From Candidatus Marinacidobacterium sp. (GTDB lineage Bacteria; Acidobacteriota; Vicinamibacteria; Marinacidobacterales; Marinacidobacteraceae): a DNA stretch of 64,000 nt. The stretch covers positions 1,760,001 through 1,824,000 of the forward strand of contig OZ244852.1 of the NCBI GenBank assembly GCA_965220965.1. Reading direction: 5' to 3'. Shown piece after piece: positions 6,282 to 49,856 of the stretch (position 1 is the first letter of the stretch; each line of letters begins with the position of its first letter). A program made the position numbers and the translations under genes. The notes under the pieces are model-generated. The model did no database searches, was not told where the DNA came from, and saw only the letters and a list, made by a program, of their open reading frames with translations.

Positions 6282-6354
<73 letters not shown>

Positions 6355-42955: not shown

Positions 42956-43480
42956 ATGTGGACGCATCCGAAGCCCGGCGAAGCGCCGAACTACTACCTG
43001 GGGGCGGCGCGGCTCGTCCCCGAAGGCGACCTTCCCGGCGCGGCGGTGGCCGAGATGGCGACGCTGCGGTCGCGGCTCGCCGGGCTGGGCGAGGAAGACG
43101 CGAACACCGGCTACGCGCCCGGCAAGTGGTCGGTGAAGGAGGTCGTCGGGCACCTCGCCGACGTCGAGCGGCTCTTCGCCTTCCGGATGCTCCATGTGGC
43201 CCGCCGGGATCCGGCGCCGCTTCCGGCGATGGACCAGGACCAGTGGGCGGAAGCGGCGCGGCACGCCGACCGCAGCCTCGGGTCACTCCTCGATGAGCTG
43301 GACACGGTGCGGGCGGCGACGGTGAGCCTGCTGTCAACGCTCGACGAGGCGGCGCTCGACGCCGCCGGGGAGGCCAGCGGCAACCGGGTTACGGTGCGGG
43401 CGATGGCGTGGTTCGCTGTGGGGCACGCGATCCACCACCGAAGGATCCTCGAAAAGCGCTACCCGGGCGTCGGCGGCTGA
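42956..43480 (+). CDS. DinB-family protein
   Basis: YAPGKWSVKEVVGHL.D.ER, GH..HH metal motif. Confidence 0.9.
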   Translation: MWTHPKPGEAPNYYLGAARLVPEGDLPGAAVAEMATLRSRLAGLGEEDANTGYAPGKWSVKEVVGHLADVERLFAFRMLHVARRDPAPLPAMDQDQWAEAARHADRSLGSLLDELDTVRAATVSLLSTLDEAALDAAGEASGNRVTVRAMAWFAVGHAIHHRRILEKRYPGVGG

Positions 43481-44708
43481 CCCCCCGGGCCCGCCCGAGA
43501 AACAGCGCGGCGGCGACCGCCAGGCTCCCCAGCAGCGCGGCGGCGCCTGCCACCGCCCCGAACCCGAGGCGGTTCATCAGCAGACCGGAAGCGACGCTGG
43601 CGAGCGCCGCGACCGACCAGTTCAGCGAGTCGGCGCGCCCCTGCCGGCGAACCTTGACGGGGGTGTTCGGGCCTCGGGCGAGCAGCGCGCTCGCCGCCAC
43701 GAACCCGAAACACCAGCCGAGGCCCAGCAGGTAGAGGGCGAACCCCATGAGCGCCCCGGCCTCGAGCGGCGCGACCGCGCCGAGGATCCCGGACGCGGTG
43801 AGCAGCAGGCCGCCCACCGCGATCATCGCGCGCTCGCCGAACCGATCCGAGAGCACGCCCACCAGCGGCGAGAGCAGGAACATCCCGAGGGTGTGCGCGC
43901 CCATGATCGCGCCCAGTCCGGTCAGCGTCCCGCCCGCCGCGACGACCTGCACCGGCGTCATCGTCATCATGACCATCATCGCGGCGTGGGCCGAGACCAT
44001 GCCGACGACCCCCAGCGCGATCTCGCCCGGGGGCGGCCCGTCATCCGGCGCCGCCGGCTCGCCGGACGCGGCGGGGGGTGGAAGCGACGCTGACGCCGGT
44101 CCGAAGGCGCGCCGGACGCGGAGCGCGCGGCTCGCGAGGAAGAGGACCGCGACCGAGGCGTAGAGCGCCGCCGAGACCAGATACGTCAGGCCGATGGCGC
44201 TGTCCCCCACCGAAGCGGCGAGGCGCTCGATCCAGGAGAAGACGAAGGGCGCCGCGAAGCTGGCGGCGACCGCCGCCCAGACCACCAGCCCGACCGCGCG
44301 TCCCCGGCGGTGCGGCGGGACGAGCAGCGCGGCGGCGTAGCGGACCAGGTGGTAGGCGGCGTAGCCGGCGCCGAGAAGCAGGCAGCTCAGGACGAAGGGG
44401 CCGAAGGCCTCGCGGCCGGCGAAGACGGAGGCCCCCACGCAGGCGAGCGCGGTGACCGCGAAGCCGAGCGCCAGCGCCGGGATCCGGCCGATGCGGGGGA
44501 TGAGCCAGGAGAGCGCCGGCGCGCCGAAGGCGACGCCGACGATCAGCGAGGCGTTCGGAACGCCGATCCAGGCCGAGCCGGAGAGGAACCGCTCGGCGAG
44601 GACCGGAGTGACGGTGATGACCAGCAGGTAGGCGGTCGATCCGAGCACCGCCCCCAGCAGGAGGACGCCGAGCGCGCGGGAGGGCCGGGGGCGGGCGGCG
44701 CGAACCAC
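43389..44708 (-). CDS. MFS transporter
   Basis: About 12 TMs; RYAAA...P..RGRA; M.MTP; H.LGMF..SP..G.LSDRFG. Confidence 0.88.
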   Translation of the reverse strand: MVRAARPRPSRALGVLLLGAVLGSTAYLLVITVTPVLAERFLSGSAWIGVPNASLIVGVAFGAPALSWLIPRIGRIPALALGFAVTALACVGASVFAGREAFGPFVLSCLLLGAGYAAYHLVRYAAALLVPPHRRGRAVGLVVWAAVAASFAAPFVFSWIERLAASVGDSAIGLTYLVSAALYASVAVLFLASRALRVRRAFGPASASLPPPAASGEPAAPDDGPPPGEIALGVVGMVSAHAAMMVMMTMTPVQVVAAGGTLTGLGAIMGAHTLGMFLLSPLVGVLSDRFGERAMIAVGGLLLTASGILGAVAPLEAGALMGFALYLLGLGWCFGFVAASALLARGPNTPVKVRRQGRADSLNWSVAALASVASGLLMNRLGFGAVAGAAALLGSLAVAAALFLGRARGVSRRRPGSAFRGSFGGGSRAPQRTTPSPAP

Positions 44709-44714
44709 GGGCGC

Positions 44715-45853
44715 TCAGTTGCCGGCGGTCAGCAGGCGCTGGAGGCCGGCGAGCGCGCGGCGCGCCTCGGGAGCGAGCGGAGCGCCATCGCCGAGGGCGC
44801 GGCGGTCCTCCTCGCCGAGCCCGAACTCGGCGGCGATGGCGCGGAACTCGGACACGACGTCGTCGTTCGGGTCGGCGCGCCAGGCGCCCGGGACGAGGCG
44901 CAGCTCGTGGAGCGGAGGAGCGCCCCCGCCCTGACCCGTTCCGGAGACCGCTCCGCCGGAGGCCGCCTGGACCCGGTCGCGGTAGGCCAGCACCTCGGGG
45001 AGCACCCAGTCGTCGAGGGTTCCGACGACCTCGATGACCGGGATCCGGAGTTCGGCGGAGAGCGCGGGAAGCTCGGGGGTGGGGTTCGCGTTCACCGCGT
45101 CGTGGAAGGGCCAGAATGCGCCGCCCTCGGCGGGGACGCCGGCGGCTTCGGCGTAGGCGGCGAAGCCGGCCTCCGATGCGCCGCGGTCCTCCGCAAGCGC
45201 AAGCCGGGCGGCCTGGCGGCGAACCGCGCCCGCCGGGTCGCCCAGCGTGGCGGAGACCAGCACCGCCCCCGCGAAGATCTCGTCCTCGGCCACCGCCGCC
45301 TGGCGGGCGATGCCGCCGCCCTCGCCGTAACCGAACAGGATCACCCGGTCGGGGTCGCGCGCTAGACGCGGGCGAATCTGGTCGAACATGAGCCGGGCGA
45401 AGGCCTCGGTGAGGCGAAGCGCGCCCCCGGCGTCCCCGAGCCCGGCGCGGTCGAAGCTGGCCCACGCGAAGCCCTCGTCGAGCGCCCACCAGCCGATGAG
45501 GTCGTCGAGCCCGGTCTCTCCGGCGCCGAGTTCGGCCCCGTCCTCGCCCCGGCGGATCCCGCCCACCCCACGGTGCGCGCCGATGACCAGCGTCCCGTTC
45601 CAGTCGGGGGGCCGCAGCGGGTGGCGGAGCACGAAGCGGCGGGGGGGTTCGCCGGGGGGCAGCGCCCGGCCGGGGGGCACCGAGGCGACGATGCCCTGCA
45701 CGGTGAGGGCGTCGCCGTAGGCGCGGCCCGGGAGCAGGGTCTCGCGCCCTCCGTGGATGTAGAGGTGGAGCCGGGCGTCGCACCCGGTCAGGAGGACGAG
45801 GAAGGCCGGGAGGAGCAGACCCGGCCACCCGCTGCGAGCCGGCGCCCGGGCAC
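44715..45853 (-). CDS. Putative lipoprotein with alpha/beta-hydrolase-like fold; start unresolved (possible frameshift near 45829)
   Basis: Frame extends upstream of GTG 45701 to WPGLLLPAFLVLLTGC (lipobox); P.DWNG.LVI..H, LFGYGEGG, PVI.VVGTLD. Confidence 0.6.
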
Positions 45854-46114
45854 AAAAAAGCCCCGGGACCCCTGCTGGGCCATCCGGCCGCTCCGCGGCG
45901 CGAGACCCGAGCGGCCGACGGAGAAACCGCCGACGCCGCTCCGGGAGGGTTCCGCCGCCGCCTGGAATCGTGGTCAGGGTCCCGGGAACTCGTCCGTTCT
46001 TTCCGGACCCGGGGGGAGTGGGAAGGACCTCAATCCCCCGCCCCGGGTCCGTAAGCGAAGTCGTCCGGCGGAGCCATGTTTCCGACCTCCTTGCGGGCTG
46101 CGGGCTGCGTTGGT
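45854..46114 (-). ncRNA. Candidate structured leader/small RNA ending in a U6 tract
   Basis: Hairpin 46051-46004; ~125-nt rod 45986-45861 closed by CCCGGGACCC/GGGUCCCGGG and followed by U6; G-U pairs favour the minus strand. Confidence 0.55.
46030..46077 (-). CDS. 15-aa small ORF / leader peptide MAPPDDFAYGPGAGD
   Basis: Perfect SD AAGGAGGT 7 nt upstream of ATG; lies downstream of a near-consensus promoter. Confidence 0.55.
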   Translation of the reverse strand: MAPPDDFAYGPGAGD

Positions 46115-46120
46115 GAGTTC

Positions 46121-46149
46121 GTTATACAGCGGTGCGGGCGGCGGGTCAA
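46121..46149 (-). promoter_or_regulatory. Sigma70-type promoter
   Basis: TTGACC-N17-TATAAC. Confidence 0.7.
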
Positions 46150-46171
46150 GTGGCGCCGCCGGACCGCGCCG

Positions 46172-48013
46172 TCACTCCAGCGAACCGTGGACGACCTCGC
46201 CCGAAACAAGCGTGGCGAGGACCCGCTCGCGCATCGTGAAGAGGAGGTCGGGGTCCTCCTCGAGCGCGTCGAGCGAGGGGAGGTCGAGCACCACGAGGTC
46301 GGCCAGCTTGCCGGGTTCGAGGCTGCCGCGCTCCTCGTCATCGTGGGTCAGCCAGGCGCCGTTCCAGGTGTAGGAGCGAAGCGCCTCCGCGACGGTCACG
46401 GTCTCCTCTTCGCCCCAGGAGACGCCGGACTTCTGGTCCTTGCGGGTGAGCAGCGCGAAGAAGCCCATCCACGGGTCGTGGGTGGTGACCCCGTAGTCGG
46501 AGCCCGAGGCCATGATGACGCCGCTGCGCATGTAGGTGCGGAAGGGCTGGAGGCGGGCCATCCGCTCGGGCCCCGAGTTCGCCGCAAAGGAGAAGCCCTG
46601 CTGCCAGTTGAACACCGGGTTGGTGGCGGCGACGATGCCGTAGCGGGCCATGTCCTCGAGGACCCGGGTCTTCGGCTCGATGGGGAAGTAGGCGTGGATC
46701 ACGCTCCAGCGGAGGTCGGGGATCTCGCCGGTCTCCTCCGTCATCTCGTCGAGCAGCTTCATGTAGAGGTCCACCGCCTGGCGCATCGCCTGGTCCCCGC
46801 AACTGTGGGTGTGGAGATCCCAGCCGTGGGCGCGGATCGCCCGGTACTGCGCCTCGCGCACTCCGTAGTCGCGCACGACCGGGTTCCCGAGGTTCTGCTC
46901 GCCCTCGAGTTCGTCCCAGAGGTGGAACGGCTCGGACATCCAGGCGCTCCTGGTCCCCACGCCGCCGTCCCCGTAGACCTTGACGCCCCGCCAGCGGAGG
47001 AACGGGTCGCCCAGGTTGTTCACCTTGATCCCGTCGAGATGCCCGGCGATGTCCTCCGGCGGGTGGGTGTTGAAGGTCCCCTCGTAGACCGCCGCGATCC
47101 GCAGGCGAAGGAGGCCGCGGTTCGCCGCCTCCTGGTAGACGCGCATGTGGTGGCCCATCCGGGAGGAGGGGTCCACGATCGCGGTCACGCCCAGCGAGAG
47201 CAGTTCGGCGATCCCGAGGCGGACGCTCTCCACCTCGTCCTCGAAGTCCTCCGGCGGCGGCCGCTCGGTGACGAGGCGGGAGCCGCGGGCCCCGAGGAAG
47301 ACCCCGGTGGGGATCTCGCGGGTCACCCGCTCGCCGTCGAGCAGGACCTCGCGCGGCGCGCGCTGGATCTGGTCCTCGAAGGTGAAGTCGTCCGGATCCT
47401 CGAGCCACCACCCGGGCCAGGTGGAGGCGTCGTCATCCTCGATCCCCATCCGGCGGAACACCTCGGTGTTCACCGCGACGCCGCGGTAGACCCGGTAGAG
47501 CGCGACCGGGTTGCCGGGCGCCACCTCGTCGAGCTGCCAGCGGGTGACCATCGCCGGGTACTTGAACTGGTCCCAGCGCCGGCCGACGATCCACTCGTTC
47601 CGGACGGTCTCCGGCTCCCGCTCGCGCTGCTCCAGCCGGGCCCGGACGGCTTCCACGATGTCCTCGGCGGTCTCGGCGTAGCTGAGCTCGACGCCCCGGG
47701 TGATGTCGTTGCCGAGCGGCAGGAAGTGGATGTGGGAGTCCTGGAGCCCGGGGATGATCGTCTTCCCGGCGAGGTCCACGGTCCTCGTGTTCGGTCCGGC
47801 GAGCGCCGCCATCTCCGCGCCCGAGCCCACGCCCACGATCCGGTCGTCCTTGATCGCCAGCGCTTCCGCCAGCGAGTCCCCGGCGTCCACCGTCCGGACC
47901 TCGGCGCCGGTCAGGATGAGGTCCGGCTCCGGATACCACTGGGCCGCCGCCAGCGGGGGGAGGCCGGCGAGCGCGAGAAGGACGAGACAGGCCGCAGCGA
48001 GAGTTCGGGACAT
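46172..48013 (-). CDS. Secreted YtcJ-like amidohydrolase (Amidohydro_3)
   Basis: Signal peptide; IPGLQDSHIH, K..GDG..G.R.A, H.CGD, IHA, GSDY, GSLEPGKLADLVVL. Confidence 0.9.
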   Translation of the reverse strand: MSRTLAAACLVLLALAGLPPLAAAQWYPEPDLILTGAEVRTVDAGDSLAEALAIKDDRIVGVGSGAEMAALAGPNTRTVDLAGKTIIPGLQDSHIHFLPLGNDITRGVELSYAETAEDIVEAVRARLEQREREPETVRNEWIVGRRWDQFKYPAMVTRWQLDEVAPGNPVALYRVYRGVAVNTEVFRRMGIEDDDASTWPGWWLEDPDDFTFEDQIQRAPREVLLDGERVTREIPTGVFLGARGSRLVTERPPPEDFEDEVESVRLGIAELLSLGVTAIVDPSSRMGHHMRVYQEAANRGLLRLRIAAVYEGTFNTHPPEDIAGHLDGIKVNNLGDPFLRWRGVKVYGDGGVGTRSAWMSEPFHLWDELEGEQNLGNPVVRDYGVREAQYRAIRAHGWDLHTHSCGDQAMRQAVDLYMKLLDEMTEETGEIPDLRWSVIHAYFPIEPKTRVLEDMARYGIVAATNPVFNWQQGFSFAANSGPERMARLQPFRTYMRSGVIMASGSDYGVTTHDPWMGFFALLTRKDQKSGVSWGEEETVTVAEALRSYTWNGAWLTHDDEERGSLEPGKLADLVVLDLPSLDALEEDPDLLFTMRERVLATLVSGEVVHGSLE

Positions 48014-48122
48014 GGCGGTTCCGATGGTACCGGCCCGGCGGGGTTGCCGGACGGGGCTGGCGCGTGGCTCACGCGGGGCCTCGCGATACCCTGCCCCTCC
48101 GTCAGGAAACGGAGGAGTCTCC

Positions 48123-49856
48123 ATGCGCCATCGAATCCACCTGCCGCTCGTTCCGCTCGCCGTCGCCCTGCTCGCCGGGTGCGGCGCCACCGGGCCGGAC
48201 ATCGGCGGCCCCGCCGACCTCGTGCTCCTCGGAGGGCGGGTCGTGACCGTCGACCCGGCCCACCCCGAAGCCGAGGCGGTCGCGGTGAAGGACGGGCTGG
48301 TCGCGGCGCTCGGGACGACCGCCGAGATCCGCCAGACCGTGGGGCCGGAGACCGAGGTCATCGAACTGGAGGGCCGTCTCGCCATCCCCGGGTTCATCGA
48401 AGGGCACGGCCATTTCCTCGGCGTCGGCAACGCCCAGATGATCCTGAAGCTGGGTGAATCGGAGAACTGGAACCGGATCGTCGACCAGGTCGCCGAAGCG
48501 GTGGCGGAGGCGGCGCCGGGAACCTGGATCGAGGGCCGCGGCTGGCACCAGGAGAAGTGGGACGAGGTTCCGGGGGGAGCGGTCGAGGGGCTGCCGCACC
48601 ACCTCGGGCTCTCCGAGATCTCCCCCGAGAACCCGGTCTTGCTGCGCCACGCCAGCGGGCACGCCGCGTTCGCGAACGCGCTGGCGATGGAGCTCGCCGG
48701 CATCGACCGGAGCACGCCGGATCCACCCGGCGGGACGATCGTGCGGGACGCCGACGGGCGGGCGACCGGGGCGCTCCGGGAGACCGCGCAGGGCCTGGTG
48801 GCGCGCGCCCGCGACCGGGCGATGGCGGAGCGGAGCCCCGAAGAGCAGCGGGCGGAGCTGGAGCTCATGGTGAAGCTCGCGGCGGAGGAGTCCCTCGCCA
48901 AGGGGGTGACCAGCTTCCAGGACGCCGGCTCCTCGTTCGCCTCGATCGACCTCTTCCGCGAGATGGCGGAGGAGGGGCGCCTCCCCATCCGGCTCTATGT
49001 CATGGTGCGGGGCGAGTCGCACGAGGACATGGACGCCCGCCTCGGCGACTACTTCCTCGACAACCACGCGGACGGCTTCCTGACCGTCCGGTCCATCAAG
49101 ACGGTGGTGGACGGCGCGCTCGGGGCCCACGGCGCGTGGCTGCTCGAGCCCTACGACGACATGCCGTCGAGCGAGGGGCTGGTGCTCCAGCCGGTCGAGG
49201 ACATCGAGGAGACGGCGCGCATCGGCGTGCGGCACGGGTTCCAGGTGAACACCCACGCGATCGGGGACCGCGGCAACCGGGAGGTGCTCGATCTCTACGA
49301 GCGGGTCTTCGAGGAGGCCGGCGTCTCGGGCCATGACCTCAGGTTCCGGATCGAGCACGCCCAGCACATCCACCCGGACGACATCCCCCGGTTCGGCCAG
49401 ATCGGGGTGATCGCCTCGATGCAGGCGGTCCACGCCACCTCGGACGGGCCGTGGGTTCCGGAGAAGCTGGGCGACTGGCGGGCGGAGACCGGCGCCTACG
49501 TCTGGCGCTCGCTCCTCGACAGCGGCGCGGTGGTGACGAACGGGACGGACGCCCCGGTCGAGGACGTGGACCCGATCGCGAGCTACCACGCGACGGTGAC
49601 GCGGGAACTGAACGATGGAACCCGGTTCTACCCGGAACAGGCGATGACCCGGGAGGAGGCGCTCCACTCCTACACGATGGCCAACGCGTTCGCGGCGTTC
49701 GAGGAGGGCGTGAAGGGCAGCCTGACCCCGGGCAAGTACGCCGACATCGTGGTCCTGACGAAGGACATCCTGAGCGTCCCGGAAGACGAGATCCTCCAGG
49801 CCCGCCCCGCGCTCACCATCGTGGCCGGGGAAGTCGTCCACCGGCTGGAGGAATAG
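48123..49856 (+). CDS. YtcJ-like amidohydrolase lipoprotein
   Basis: LAGC lipobox; [48 protein letters not shown]. Confidence 0.92.

Follow-up and report, generated by a model that had tools for sequence, protein, structure and literature searches.

A predicted ribosome-dependent leader with a long-range helix and a three-way junction upstream of a lipoprotein-transporter operon in one family of Vicinamibacteria

The DNA stretch analysed in this work (hereafter the window) comprises 64,000 nucleotides (nt) of Candidatus Marinacidobacterium sp. (Acidobacteriota; Vicinamibacteria), positions 1,760,001 to 1,824,000 of contig OZ244852.1 in assembly GCA_965220965.1. On its minus strand, in the spacer between an Amidohydro_3 gene (end 46172) and a lipoprotein gene that is followed by a gene of the major facilitator superfamily (MFS), lies an element (46149-45851) with a promoter, a small open reading frame (ORF) and complementary segments that can pair in alternative ways. 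We propose that this element is probably a new ribosome-dependent cis-acting leader of the lipoprotein-MFS operon, in which read-through would be the ON state. As judged from the sequences, it would most likely be an attenuator that acts both on translation and on transcription and is gated by an N-terminal Pro-Pro-Asp-(Asp/Glu) peptide, PPD(D/E). A previous reading of the same DNA from its letters (the sequence-only reading) had described a separate, hidden transcription unit at this place. The element adjoins the lipoprotein gene in all 27 genomes in which it was found, and its 3' helix holds the Shine-Dalgarno (SD) sequence or the AUG of that gene; by this placement it is the operon's own leader and not a separate unit.

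All parts of the element are read on the minus strand. The sigma-70-type promoter has the -35 box TTGACC (46149-46144), a spacer of 17 nt and the -10 box TATAAC (46126-46121), from which a transcript start near 46114 and a leader of ~260 nt are predicted. The SD of the leader ORF (AAGGAGGT, 46092-46085) is followed by 15 codons, MAPPDDFAYGPGAGD, from the ATG at 46077 to the TGA at 46030, with the Pro-Pro-Asp codons at 46071-46063. The first segment, seg1 (CGGACCCGGGG, 46051-46041), is located inside the leader ORF and pairs with seg2 (CCCCGGGTCCG, 46014-46004) to form the hairpin P1 (46004-46051), which is supported by the minimum free energy (MFE) fold and by the alignment; its apex is variable, and the leader stop codon (46032-46030) sits in its apical loop. 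The third segment, seg3 (CCCGGGACCC, 45986-45977), belongs with the linker GGACGAG to a conserved block (45976-45995) and pairs with seg4 (GGGGTCCCGGGG, 45872-45861). The resulting helix P3 has its 5' strand at 45991-45976 and its 3' strand at 45872-45858. A terminator-like U-tract of six T (45859-45854) comes next, with a GTG at 45853 directly after it. The MFE fold also contains a hairpin P0 (46053-46092), in which the region of the leader SD (46092-46083) is paired with codons 5-8 (46063-46053). The interval of ~104 nt from seg3 to seg4, which had been taken for a rod, is folded by RNAfold into a long hairpin Pa (45966-45892) and a short hairpin Pe (45891-45874) whose loop carries ATG 45883-45881. 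Both are closed by seg3:seg4, so that the interval (45873-45975, with the joint GACCAC) is instead the interior of a three-way junction, which fold and covariation show to be conserved. The predicted folds of the window sequence include the 1:2 and 3:4 pairings. Otherwise, the promoter, SD, ORF, four segments and T6 of the sequence-only reading were all recovered at their minus-strand positions, and both genes of the lipoprotein-MFS pair are present downstream. A generic promoter and terminator scan of 44500-47500 made no calls, because its own rules, which ask for T as the final base of the -10 box and for loops of 3-8 nt, exclude this -10 box and the junction-sized loop.

The comparison is based on one family of Vicinamibacteria with genera labelled g1 to g7, and on two other families of the order, f2 (8 genomes, including G033, which is flagged as unpublished) and f3 (19 genomes). 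Among the 28 examined genomes of the family, all derived from metagenome-assembled genomes (MAGs), 27 carry the element, i.e. 26 besides the window genome. The covariance model R1 (265 positions, 62 pairs) scored the element with 171 bits in its own genome and nothing else there above 15.4 bits. A BLAST search against the same 3.25-Mb genome returned one full copy and one 44-nt fragment-like match. By both searches the element is a single copy and not a repeat dispersed through the genome. Furthermore, R1 detected exactly one copy per genome, with 124-271 bits, in 27 of the 28 family genomes; the missing one (G041) is 66% complete and also lacks the lipoprotein gene. No convincing copy was found in the 27 other genomes of the order (f2 1/8, with two 20-bit matches in G037; f3 0/19) or in 150 further genomes of the phylum, where the only matches were two of 20-21 bits in G060. 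The uninspected R1 matches with scores between 12 and 21 bits, found in the window's genome and in G037 and G060, were taken to be noise. The element is located directly upstream of the same lipoprotein gene in all 27 carriers. This gene occurs in one copy in 27 of the 28 family genomes and in all seven genera, and outside the family only distant relatives of it were seen (38-44% identity, in 5/19 genomes of f3 and 0/8 of f2). The neighbours are less constant, with the amidohydrolase gene upstream in 21 and the MFS gene downstream in 24 of the 27 loci. The element travels with the lipoprotein gene and not with its neighbours.

BLAST of the element in the relatives led to 12 syntenic loci, and its short non-syntenic matches (21-50 nt, E from 1e-3 to 1e-2) were treated as chance. 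When one genome for each prokaryotic species was scanned with an exact pattern, 24 stretches matched. The element accounts for 14 of them; the titles of these MAG records all name Acidobacteria, Acidobacteriota or Vicinamibacteria, and 11 of the 14 duplicate loci already in the set. The ten others (L024, L025, L026, L030, L031, L034, L035, L038, L039, L044) are coding-region coincidences from other taxa and were dropped on inspection. With Rfam at gathering thresholds, a tRNA (6282-6354) was the sole match in the whole window and none fell on the element. At E <= 10, the region 45500-46500 yielded seven sub-threshold matches to microRNA and small RNA (sRNA) models (14-24 bits vs thresholds of 55-91), and no known family such as 6S was matched. 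Searches of open-access papers on leaders, upstream ORFs (uORFs), riboswitches and RNA motifs in Vicinamibacteria or Acidobacteria gave nothing describing the element, which is not proof of absence. The word undescribed, used in the sequence-only reading, is consistent with both of these searches.

The beginning of the element is kept throughout the family. A promoter of the form TTGAC[ACT]-N17-TA[CTA]AA[ACT] was found by regular expression at the same place in 25 of the 27 genomes, with degenerate versions in the remaining two, and an SD of the form GGRGGTYGRR precedes the ATG by 5-6 nt in all of them. The leader peptide begins with M-x-A-P-P-D-(D/E/N/Q) in 27/27 genomes (MAPPDDF... in the window), with the ATG and Pro-Pro-Asp invariant. 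The spelling of the codons is variable. Codon 2 reads ACC (11), ACT (5), ACA (2), AAC (3), AGC (2) or GCA (1), with Thr encoded by ACC, ACT and ACA, and the Ala codon reads GCA (22), GCT (2) or GCG (2). One Pro is spelled CCA and one Asp GAT, and Phe is TTT (14) or TTC (7). In addition, the leader ORF of genus g1 is shorter by exactly one codon. Given this coding-type substitution pattern, the leader ORF is very probably translated, and the small ORF of the sequence-only reading gains support from a peptide start that is kept in all genomes with synonymous changes.

The leader contains just two Pro codons and one or two Asp/Glu codons, which end 16 nt before seg1. It is known that diprolyl-Asp is among the contexts most dependent on elongation factor P (EF-P), and the window's genome contains an efp gene (241.6 bits vs a cut-off of 185.8). 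A signal of the stalling type, as had been suggested for the peptide, fits the invariant PPD (PP-D, by EF-P dependence or by ribosome destabilisation). In the accessible part of the work on MgtL, the authors screen for 4 of 6 D/E/P residues after Met (bioRxiv 10.1101/2021.02.02.429294). By our own count, 25 of the 27 leaders pass this screen, and G011 (TAPPDN) and G004 (NAPPDQ) reach 3/6. Two similarities of sequence were seen in the adjoining amidohydrolase gene: its product contains ...RPPPEDFEDE..., which is similar to the leader APPDDF, and in G003 (L005 position 264) the word CCGCCGGACGAC occurs inside the gene. Both are probably fortuitous.

Past residue 8, the leader peptides diverge and fall into two length classes. 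The short-ORF class includes 8 genomes (g1, g5, g6) with 15-21 codons and a stop in the P1 apical loop. The long-ORF class includes 19 genomes (g2, g3, g4, g7) with 18-42 codons, and 17 of these 19 ORFs end at the same UGA/UAG directly after seg3. In G014 and G021, where seg3 has lost 1 nt, the ORF continues for two more codons to the following UGA. The long frame, and the stop shared by the 17 genomes, are retained although 42 nt of the P1 apex are deleted in G003, P1 is missing altogether in G004 and the length has changed in other ways. The UGA of the P1 apical loop is the leader stop in g1, g5 and most of g6, and is out of frame in g2. The loop sequence CUGAA/UGAA is seen more than once, at the tip of P1 in g2 and g6 and at that of Pe in g1 and g3.

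The pairings were evaluated on A2, a plain MAFFT alignment of the 27 leaders that was not fitted to structure, with a 66-pair structure derived from one g2 sequence. As the sequences are kin, slid controls and counts of pair types are safer guides here than shuffles. Over the 66 pairs, 90.7% of the cells are paired, compared with 86.9 +/- 0.3% in column shuffles and 38-55% with slid partners, and 24 pairs are changed on both sides vs 12.5 +/- 2.2 (0/500 shuffles). P3, i.e. seg3:seg4 with four outer pairs, is 98% paired and 6 of its 15 pairs are compensatory, with the variants GGGACCC/GGGUCCC, GGAACCC/GGGUUCC, GGGGUCC/GGACCCC, GGAGUCC/GGACUCC, GGGAUCC/GGAUCCC and GAGGUCC/GGACCUC. In the outer helix of P1, 8 of 11 pairs are changed on both sides and 87% of the cells are paired; G003 lacks its apex, and G004 lacks the hairpin altogether. 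Both pairings proposed from the window sequence, seg1:seg2 and seg3:seg4, thus covary. The junction helices Pa, Pc, Pd and Pe are 76-95% paired in the 27 genomes with some compensatory pairs, Pa being ~17 nt (G007) to ~85 nt long and the junction 'loop' ~60-140 nt. The frequent G-U pairs are compatible with the minus strand only. It was considered whether the GAUGAG joint belongs to a hammerhead or another ribozyme, and this was rejected, as there is no Rfam match and, in our reading, the core does not fit. For the alternative pairing seg2:seg3, 90.6% of the cells are paired vs 86.9 +/- 0.7% in shuffles (0/500) and 64-75% in slid controls, with 12 compensatory cells (0/500 shuffles). When seg1 was masked in folding simulations, at least 5 seg2:seg3 pairs formed in 17 of 26 genomes. 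By comparing the homologous intergenic regions of the 27 genomes, the element is seen to be conserved and structured with covariation.

These data also bear on the explanation by chance, according to which the hairpins would arise from CCCGGG words in an ordinary intergenic spacer of DNA with 71.5% G+C. The word is self-complementary and occurs 109 times in the 64-kb window, and the fold energy of the window element alone is ordinary (z = -1.08 vs shuffles), a single-sequence z-score not being useful in DNA of this composition. On the other hand, five copies of CCCGGG stand within 221 nt, where 0.38 are expected from the window's own density, and the 64 kb contain no denser cluster of the word. 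Moreover, non-coding DNA is kept here at 67-78% identity across 7 genera, the helices carry compensatory changes, and R1 gives 124-271 bits in the relatives vs at most 15.4 bits elsewhere in the own genome. On these comparisons the element is not a chance product of GC-rich DNA, and we consider the chance explanation to have practically no likelihood.

The region in which the lipoprotein gene starts is part of the same structure. Starts were read in the frame of the lipobox cysteine in the 27 genomes. In seven genomes (G002, G004, both g4 genomes and three of the four g6 genomes), an in-frame ATG or GTG lies 5-10 nt past seg4, and in G001 an in-frame ATG lies ~20 nt past it. The purine-rich 3' end of seg4 (GGGAG/GGGGC) is placed as an SD for these starts. 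In 19 of the 27 genomes (all 15 of g2, G008, G006, G013 and G004), a conserved AUG in the joint that separates the two hairpins of the junction shares the frame of the lipobox Cys, and no stop codon intervenes. This junction AUG has the motif AUGAGG (AUGAGA in G019) and is the sole canonical in-frame start in G020, G009 and G022. The distance from seg4 to the Cys in g2 is 62, 68, 80, 95, 104, 131 or 248 nt, all 2 mod 3, as it should be if codons run through seg4 and the U-run (...G-T-P-G-L-F...). In the alignment, the 3' strand of P3 therefore doubles as SD or as early codons of the lipoprotein gene. Read in this way, the translation initiation region lies within P3 and the junction in each of the genomes. 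At least four U within 8 nt past P3 were counted in 22/27 genomes, with 0 in G015, 2 in G011 and 3 in G001, G010 and G005. The U6 of the sequence-only reading is present in the window, as T6; because the U-tract is weak or absent in 5/27 genomes, termination is not a universal output. Because the U-run is not universal while the start is enclosed everywhere, we infer that masking of the start is what all members would have in common, with termination added to it in most of them.

In the window, the lipoprotein start region (45780-45853) contains the lipobox L-T-G-C with its Cys codon at 45782-45780, a GTG at 45853-45851 in frame 2 and a CTG at 45818-45816 in the lipobox frame. The frame to which both ATG 45883 and GTG 45853 belong is closed by TGA 45790-45788. 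The region 45500-46300, including this start region, is identical in DNA contigs from runs of two studies, one of which may be the window's source. Several observations concern the same region in the relatives. The lipoprotein start codon moved in the history of the family (A2 columns 237-299, loci L046-L072), being the junction AUG in 19 genomes and a post-seg4 ATG or GTG in others. The word NTGTACG after seg4 is conserved as nucleotides and read in different frames by genus. A dispersed repeat of ~185 nt with 84-86% identity occurs in both orientations at varied sites around the locus in several g2 genomes, i.e. L005:1661-1900 (G003), L011/L049 (G017), L063/L084/L029 (G042, tandem) and L062/L082 (G021). 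In G003 it lies between seg4 and the lipobox, open in frame, and it resembles a small mobile element. Tandem repeats were seen upstream of the element in G002 (L003:264-900), and in G010 (L071) ~800 nt separate the start from the lipobox, with a repetitive Pro/Arg-rich stretch in frame with the lipoprotein N-terminus.

The position of the start codon matters for two other explanations. The junction could be a riboswitch-like site for a ligand or protein, whose binding would stabilise P3, terminate transcription and mask the start, with the ORF being secondary. Such a site would account for a junction that is kept in 27/27 genomes, for the covariation of its helices and for the partial conservation of its joints (YGAYCA, (G)AUGAG, GA(A)GGG). 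However, these joint letters are explained by the leader stop codon and the AUG-AGG start of the lipoprotein, and the invariant positions are mostly in G-C helices or in the leader ORF, not in joints. The length of Pa ranges from ~17 (G007) to ~85 nt, no Rfam family matches even at E <= 10, and the invariant SD-ATG-PPD would be left unexplained. We regard this explanation as improbable, and the aptamer previously suggested for the large loop finds little support, as the joints lack an invariant pocket and no known class matches. It is still less likely that the terminated transcript of ~260 nt is mainly a trans-acting or dual-function sRNA such as rnTrpL of Sinorhizobium. A strong promoter and a terminator-like end in most members would suit it, and attenuator-derived sRNAs exist, according to the accessible part of the literature (PMC6614838). 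Nevertheless, there is one copy per genome that is never away from the lipoprotein gene, the start codon or SD of this gene is inside the element, and the U-tract is weak or absent in 5/27 genomes; no target was found, and none was searched for. Nor is the large loop, in our reading, an independent non-coding RNA, which had been the other suggestion.

The sequences show the features, how these are conserved and covary, and where the SD, AUG and stop codons lie; from this we infer the transcription and translation of the leader as well as the direction and the signal of control, as follows. The strong promoter would give the leader of ~260 nt, and the well-placed SD would drive translation of the small ORF. 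Its M-x-A-P-P-D-(D/E) would be a hard-to-translate cluster, with a diprolyl and then acidic residues directly after the start. P3, a long-range helix of 15 pairs, would be both a terminator-like stem and a mask over the lipoprotein start, which would be either an SD in seg4 with a start codon 5-10 nt further on or an AUG inside the junction. A ribosome that moves past PPD would melt P1, and the freed seg2 could capture seg3 during the transcription of ~100 nt before seg4. In the 19 long-ORF genomes, the ribosome would unwind seg3 itself and terminate on it. With P3 unformed or opened, transcription would continue and the lipoprotein start would be exposed. Conversely, a stall or drop-off at PPD, 16 nt before P1, would allow P1 and P3 to form and the operon would be off. 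It would mean that expression of the operon reports the capacity to translate an N-terminal PPD(D/E), i.e. EF-P activity, ribosome stability and Mg2+, or prolyl-tRNA.

Folding simulations are consistent with these steps. P3 forms in 27/27 full-length folds with 12.9-14.9 of its 15 pairs, and before seg4 exists, P1 dominates in 25 of 26 folds. Between the second Pro codon and the first pair of P1 lie 16 nt in 25/26 genomes and 15 nt in G008. A ribosome parked at PPD (mask -12 to +14, second Pro codon in the P site) leaves P1 intact in 24/26 simulations. The trp-type logic of the sequence-only reading fits poorly with this geometry, in which the parked ribosome ends 16 nt before seg1 and P1 stays intact. 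The same geometry speaks against the opposite logic in general, similar to trp, erm or MgtL, by which a stall or abortion at PPD would favour seg2:seg3 or an open form (ON) and smooth translation would switch the operon OFF. This logic has in its favour the stop codon between seg1 and seg2 in the 8 short-ORF genomes, as in trpL, some covariation of seg2:seg3, and the case of MgtL, where early abortion turns mgtA on according to the accessible part of the preprint (bioRxiv 10.1101/2021.02.02.429294). Besides the 16-nt distance and the intact P1, it is opposed by the 19 ORFs that run through seg3, so smooth translation must open P3, and by G004, which has neither seg1 nor seg2. We consider the opposite logic unlikely, and read-through as the ON state remains the preferred direction.

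Several points weigh against this preferred scheme, in addition to the ordinary fold energy given above. The firing of the promoter, translation of the leader ORF and termination at P3 are predictions from sequence, and the direction is suggested by geometry and folding simulations only. All comparative evidence comes from one family, and the significance from shuffles is overstated because the 27 instances are related. The seven core pairs of P0 are 92.5% paired with one-sided changes only and without compensatory pairs. For seg2:seg3, 4 pairs are changed on both sides vs 2.9 in shuffles, which is not significant (112/500), and the pairing was not predicted in 9 of 26 genomes (G001, G003, G022, G024, G015, G011, G013, G010, G005). 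These nine include three short-ORF g6 genomes, where the scheme needs seg2:seg3 most. The seg2:seg3 alternative of the sequence-only reading is thus kept as a pairing with moderate support that is predicted in 17/26 genomes, and not as a universal one. Since P3 is far stronger than seg2:seg3, the switch in short-ORF genomes must be kinetic. Such a route suits a co-transcriptional decision at a terminator and is awkward for G015 and G011, which have no U-tract. The junction AUG has no SD upstream. Finally, in the window genome the lipobox frame contains no ATG, GTG or TTG from 46121 to 45701, with CTG 45818 as the only candidate. It is possible that the window lipoprotein has a CTG start, that a translational frameshift is used or that the gene is N-terminally broken. 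A -1 frameshift site was looked for at this start, and no slippery heptamer was seen.

A further, rather doubtful possibility is a caged-start device with termination and reinitiation across the base of Pa, which would be a bacterial counterpart of ribosome shunting. In 17 genomes (g2, g3, g7), the leader stop is located on the 5' side of the junction (two codons further in G014 and G021), and in the same 17 genomes the SD-less lipoprotein AUG is located in the same junction, 0-1 nt past Pa. Once past the PPD(D/E) gate, a ribosome would open P3 and end translation of the leader ORF at the junction, after which this ribosome or its 30S subunit would restart across the folded Pa. If this were true, the operon would directly report either the activity of EF-P or the stability of ribosomes as it depends on Mg2+.

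The mature part of the lipoprotein (44715-45782, minus strand) is alpha/beta-hydrolase-like, with 67-78% identity across the family. Its Pfam matches are sub-threshold and to alpha/beta-hydrolases only, Hydrolase_4 being found in 9/19 members with a best E of 1.8e-5 and, in the single member with a reported score, not reaching the cut-off. All NCBIfam matches were far below the cut-offs, and a profile search of the PDB gave nothing below E = 0.13. Its neighbours in a protein atlas are alpha/beta-hydrolase clusters (0.91-0.92, 151-165 shared features), which are leads only, and the AlphaFold model is too poor for use (mean predicted local distance difference test, pLDDT, of 44.5). The nucleophile-elbow position reads G-[YF]-[GAR]-[EQA]-G-G-G, without serine, in 27/27 orthologues, and the lipoprotein may be non-catalytic or may use another nucleophile. 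The MFS transporter gene (43389-44708, minus strand) starts 6 nt past the lipoprotein stop. Its product matches the general MFS_1 model only (E = 1.2e-17) and is below all NCBIfam cut-offs. A second Amidohydro_3-like ORF of 718 aa (47700-49856, plus strand) lies divergently beside the first (46172-47950, minus strand), and its translation carries a lipoprotein-like signal of its own (...LLAGC...).

Most known leader-peptide attenuators come from Proteobacteria, Firmicutes and Actinobacteria. For Acidobacteriota, and especially for uncultured Vicinamibacteria, almost nothing has to our knowledge been described on regulation at the level of RNA. Attenuators of the trpL type have a leader ORF, mutually exclusive 1:2, 2:3 and 3:4 pairings and a run of cognate codons in seg1. 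The element shares with them a leader ORF with its own SD, the 1:2 and 3:4 pairings with a moderately supported 2:3, a 3:4 helix that is followed by a U-run in most genomes, and, in 8 genomes, the stop between seg1 and seg2. It differs from them in having no run of cognate amino-acid codons and no biosynthetic operon, and in the candidate pause before seg1. Moreover, its 3:4 'loop' is a three-way junction of ~100 nt, 3:4 masks the next start and the U-run is not universal. Translational attenuators of the ermC, cmlA and fexA type depend on drug-dependent arrest in seg1 upstream of a resistance gene. A leader peptide, a regulated SD or start within or enclosed by 3:4 and an MFS gene in the operon are common to both. 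In contrast to them, the element shows no sign of a drug signal or resistance role, its first gene encodes a lipoprotein, it is a core syntenic feature of the family, and its PPD is located outside seg1. In the MS2 coat-replicase and rpmI-rplT systems, upstream translation opens a distant helix that hides the next start. The same would be true here, although the upstream ORF is not a full gene and would instead be a dedicated sensor of 15-42 codons with a hard-to-translate N-terminus.

The closest parallels in logic are found in leaders of Mg2+ transport genes. The mgtA leader of E. coli and Salmonella is long and Rho-dependent. In its leader peptide MgtL of E. coli, EPDP after Met aborts translation within six residues and serves as a Mg2+-sensitive sensor, as described in the accessible part of the preprint (bioRxiv 10.1101/2021.02.02.429294). 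A D/E/P cluster directly after Met (EPDP there, APPD(D/E) here), a small ORF and a long leader with alternative folds are shared. Unlike MgtL, the element has no Rfam match, including the Mg sensor, and lies upstream of a lipoprotein and an MFS gene, with no Mg2+ pump. Its output would be a hairpin with a U-run and a masked start rather than Rho loading, and the direction of control is likely opposite. The mgtQ uORF of Salmonella (mgtC-mgtB) frees the mgtB ribosome binding site from the stem-loop that inhibits it through 1:2 and 2:3 pairings and needs its Asp/Glu codons, as far as the accessible text describes it (PMC8092293). The short ORF over region 1 of alternative stem-loops, translation that frees a ribosome binding site, and tuning by Asp, Glu and Pro codons are similar. 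Within the same limits, mgtQ is different in having 8 codons, in being intergenic within its operon and in serving a Mg2+ transporter, whereas the element has a three-way junction, a U-run and no sequence similarity to it, and its masked start can sit inside the junction ~100 nt from the partner strand. A link between polyproline translation and termination has been reported, in that loss of EF-P uncouples translation from transcription and raises intrinsic termination in polyproline mRNAs, according to the accessible part of that work (PMC5021804).

The element joins three features that are usually separate, i.e. an N-terminal PPD(D/E) peptide, alternative hairpins and a junction-closing long-range helix that would be both terminator stem and start cage. 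If the proposal is true, it would provide a compact natural part (~260 nt) that links ribosome progress to RNA refolding over distances of 100 nt, and the 27 natural variants form a mutational series, with short or long ORFs, P1 and the U-run present or absent, and two positions of the start codon. Because it has no Rfam match, other downstream genes and a long-range helix with a junction that cages the start, the element, as far as its sequence goes, resembles mgtL and mgtQ in logic and is a member of none of the compared systems. It would then represent a second, unrelated lineage of hard-to-translate leader sensors of the mgtL/mgtQ type.

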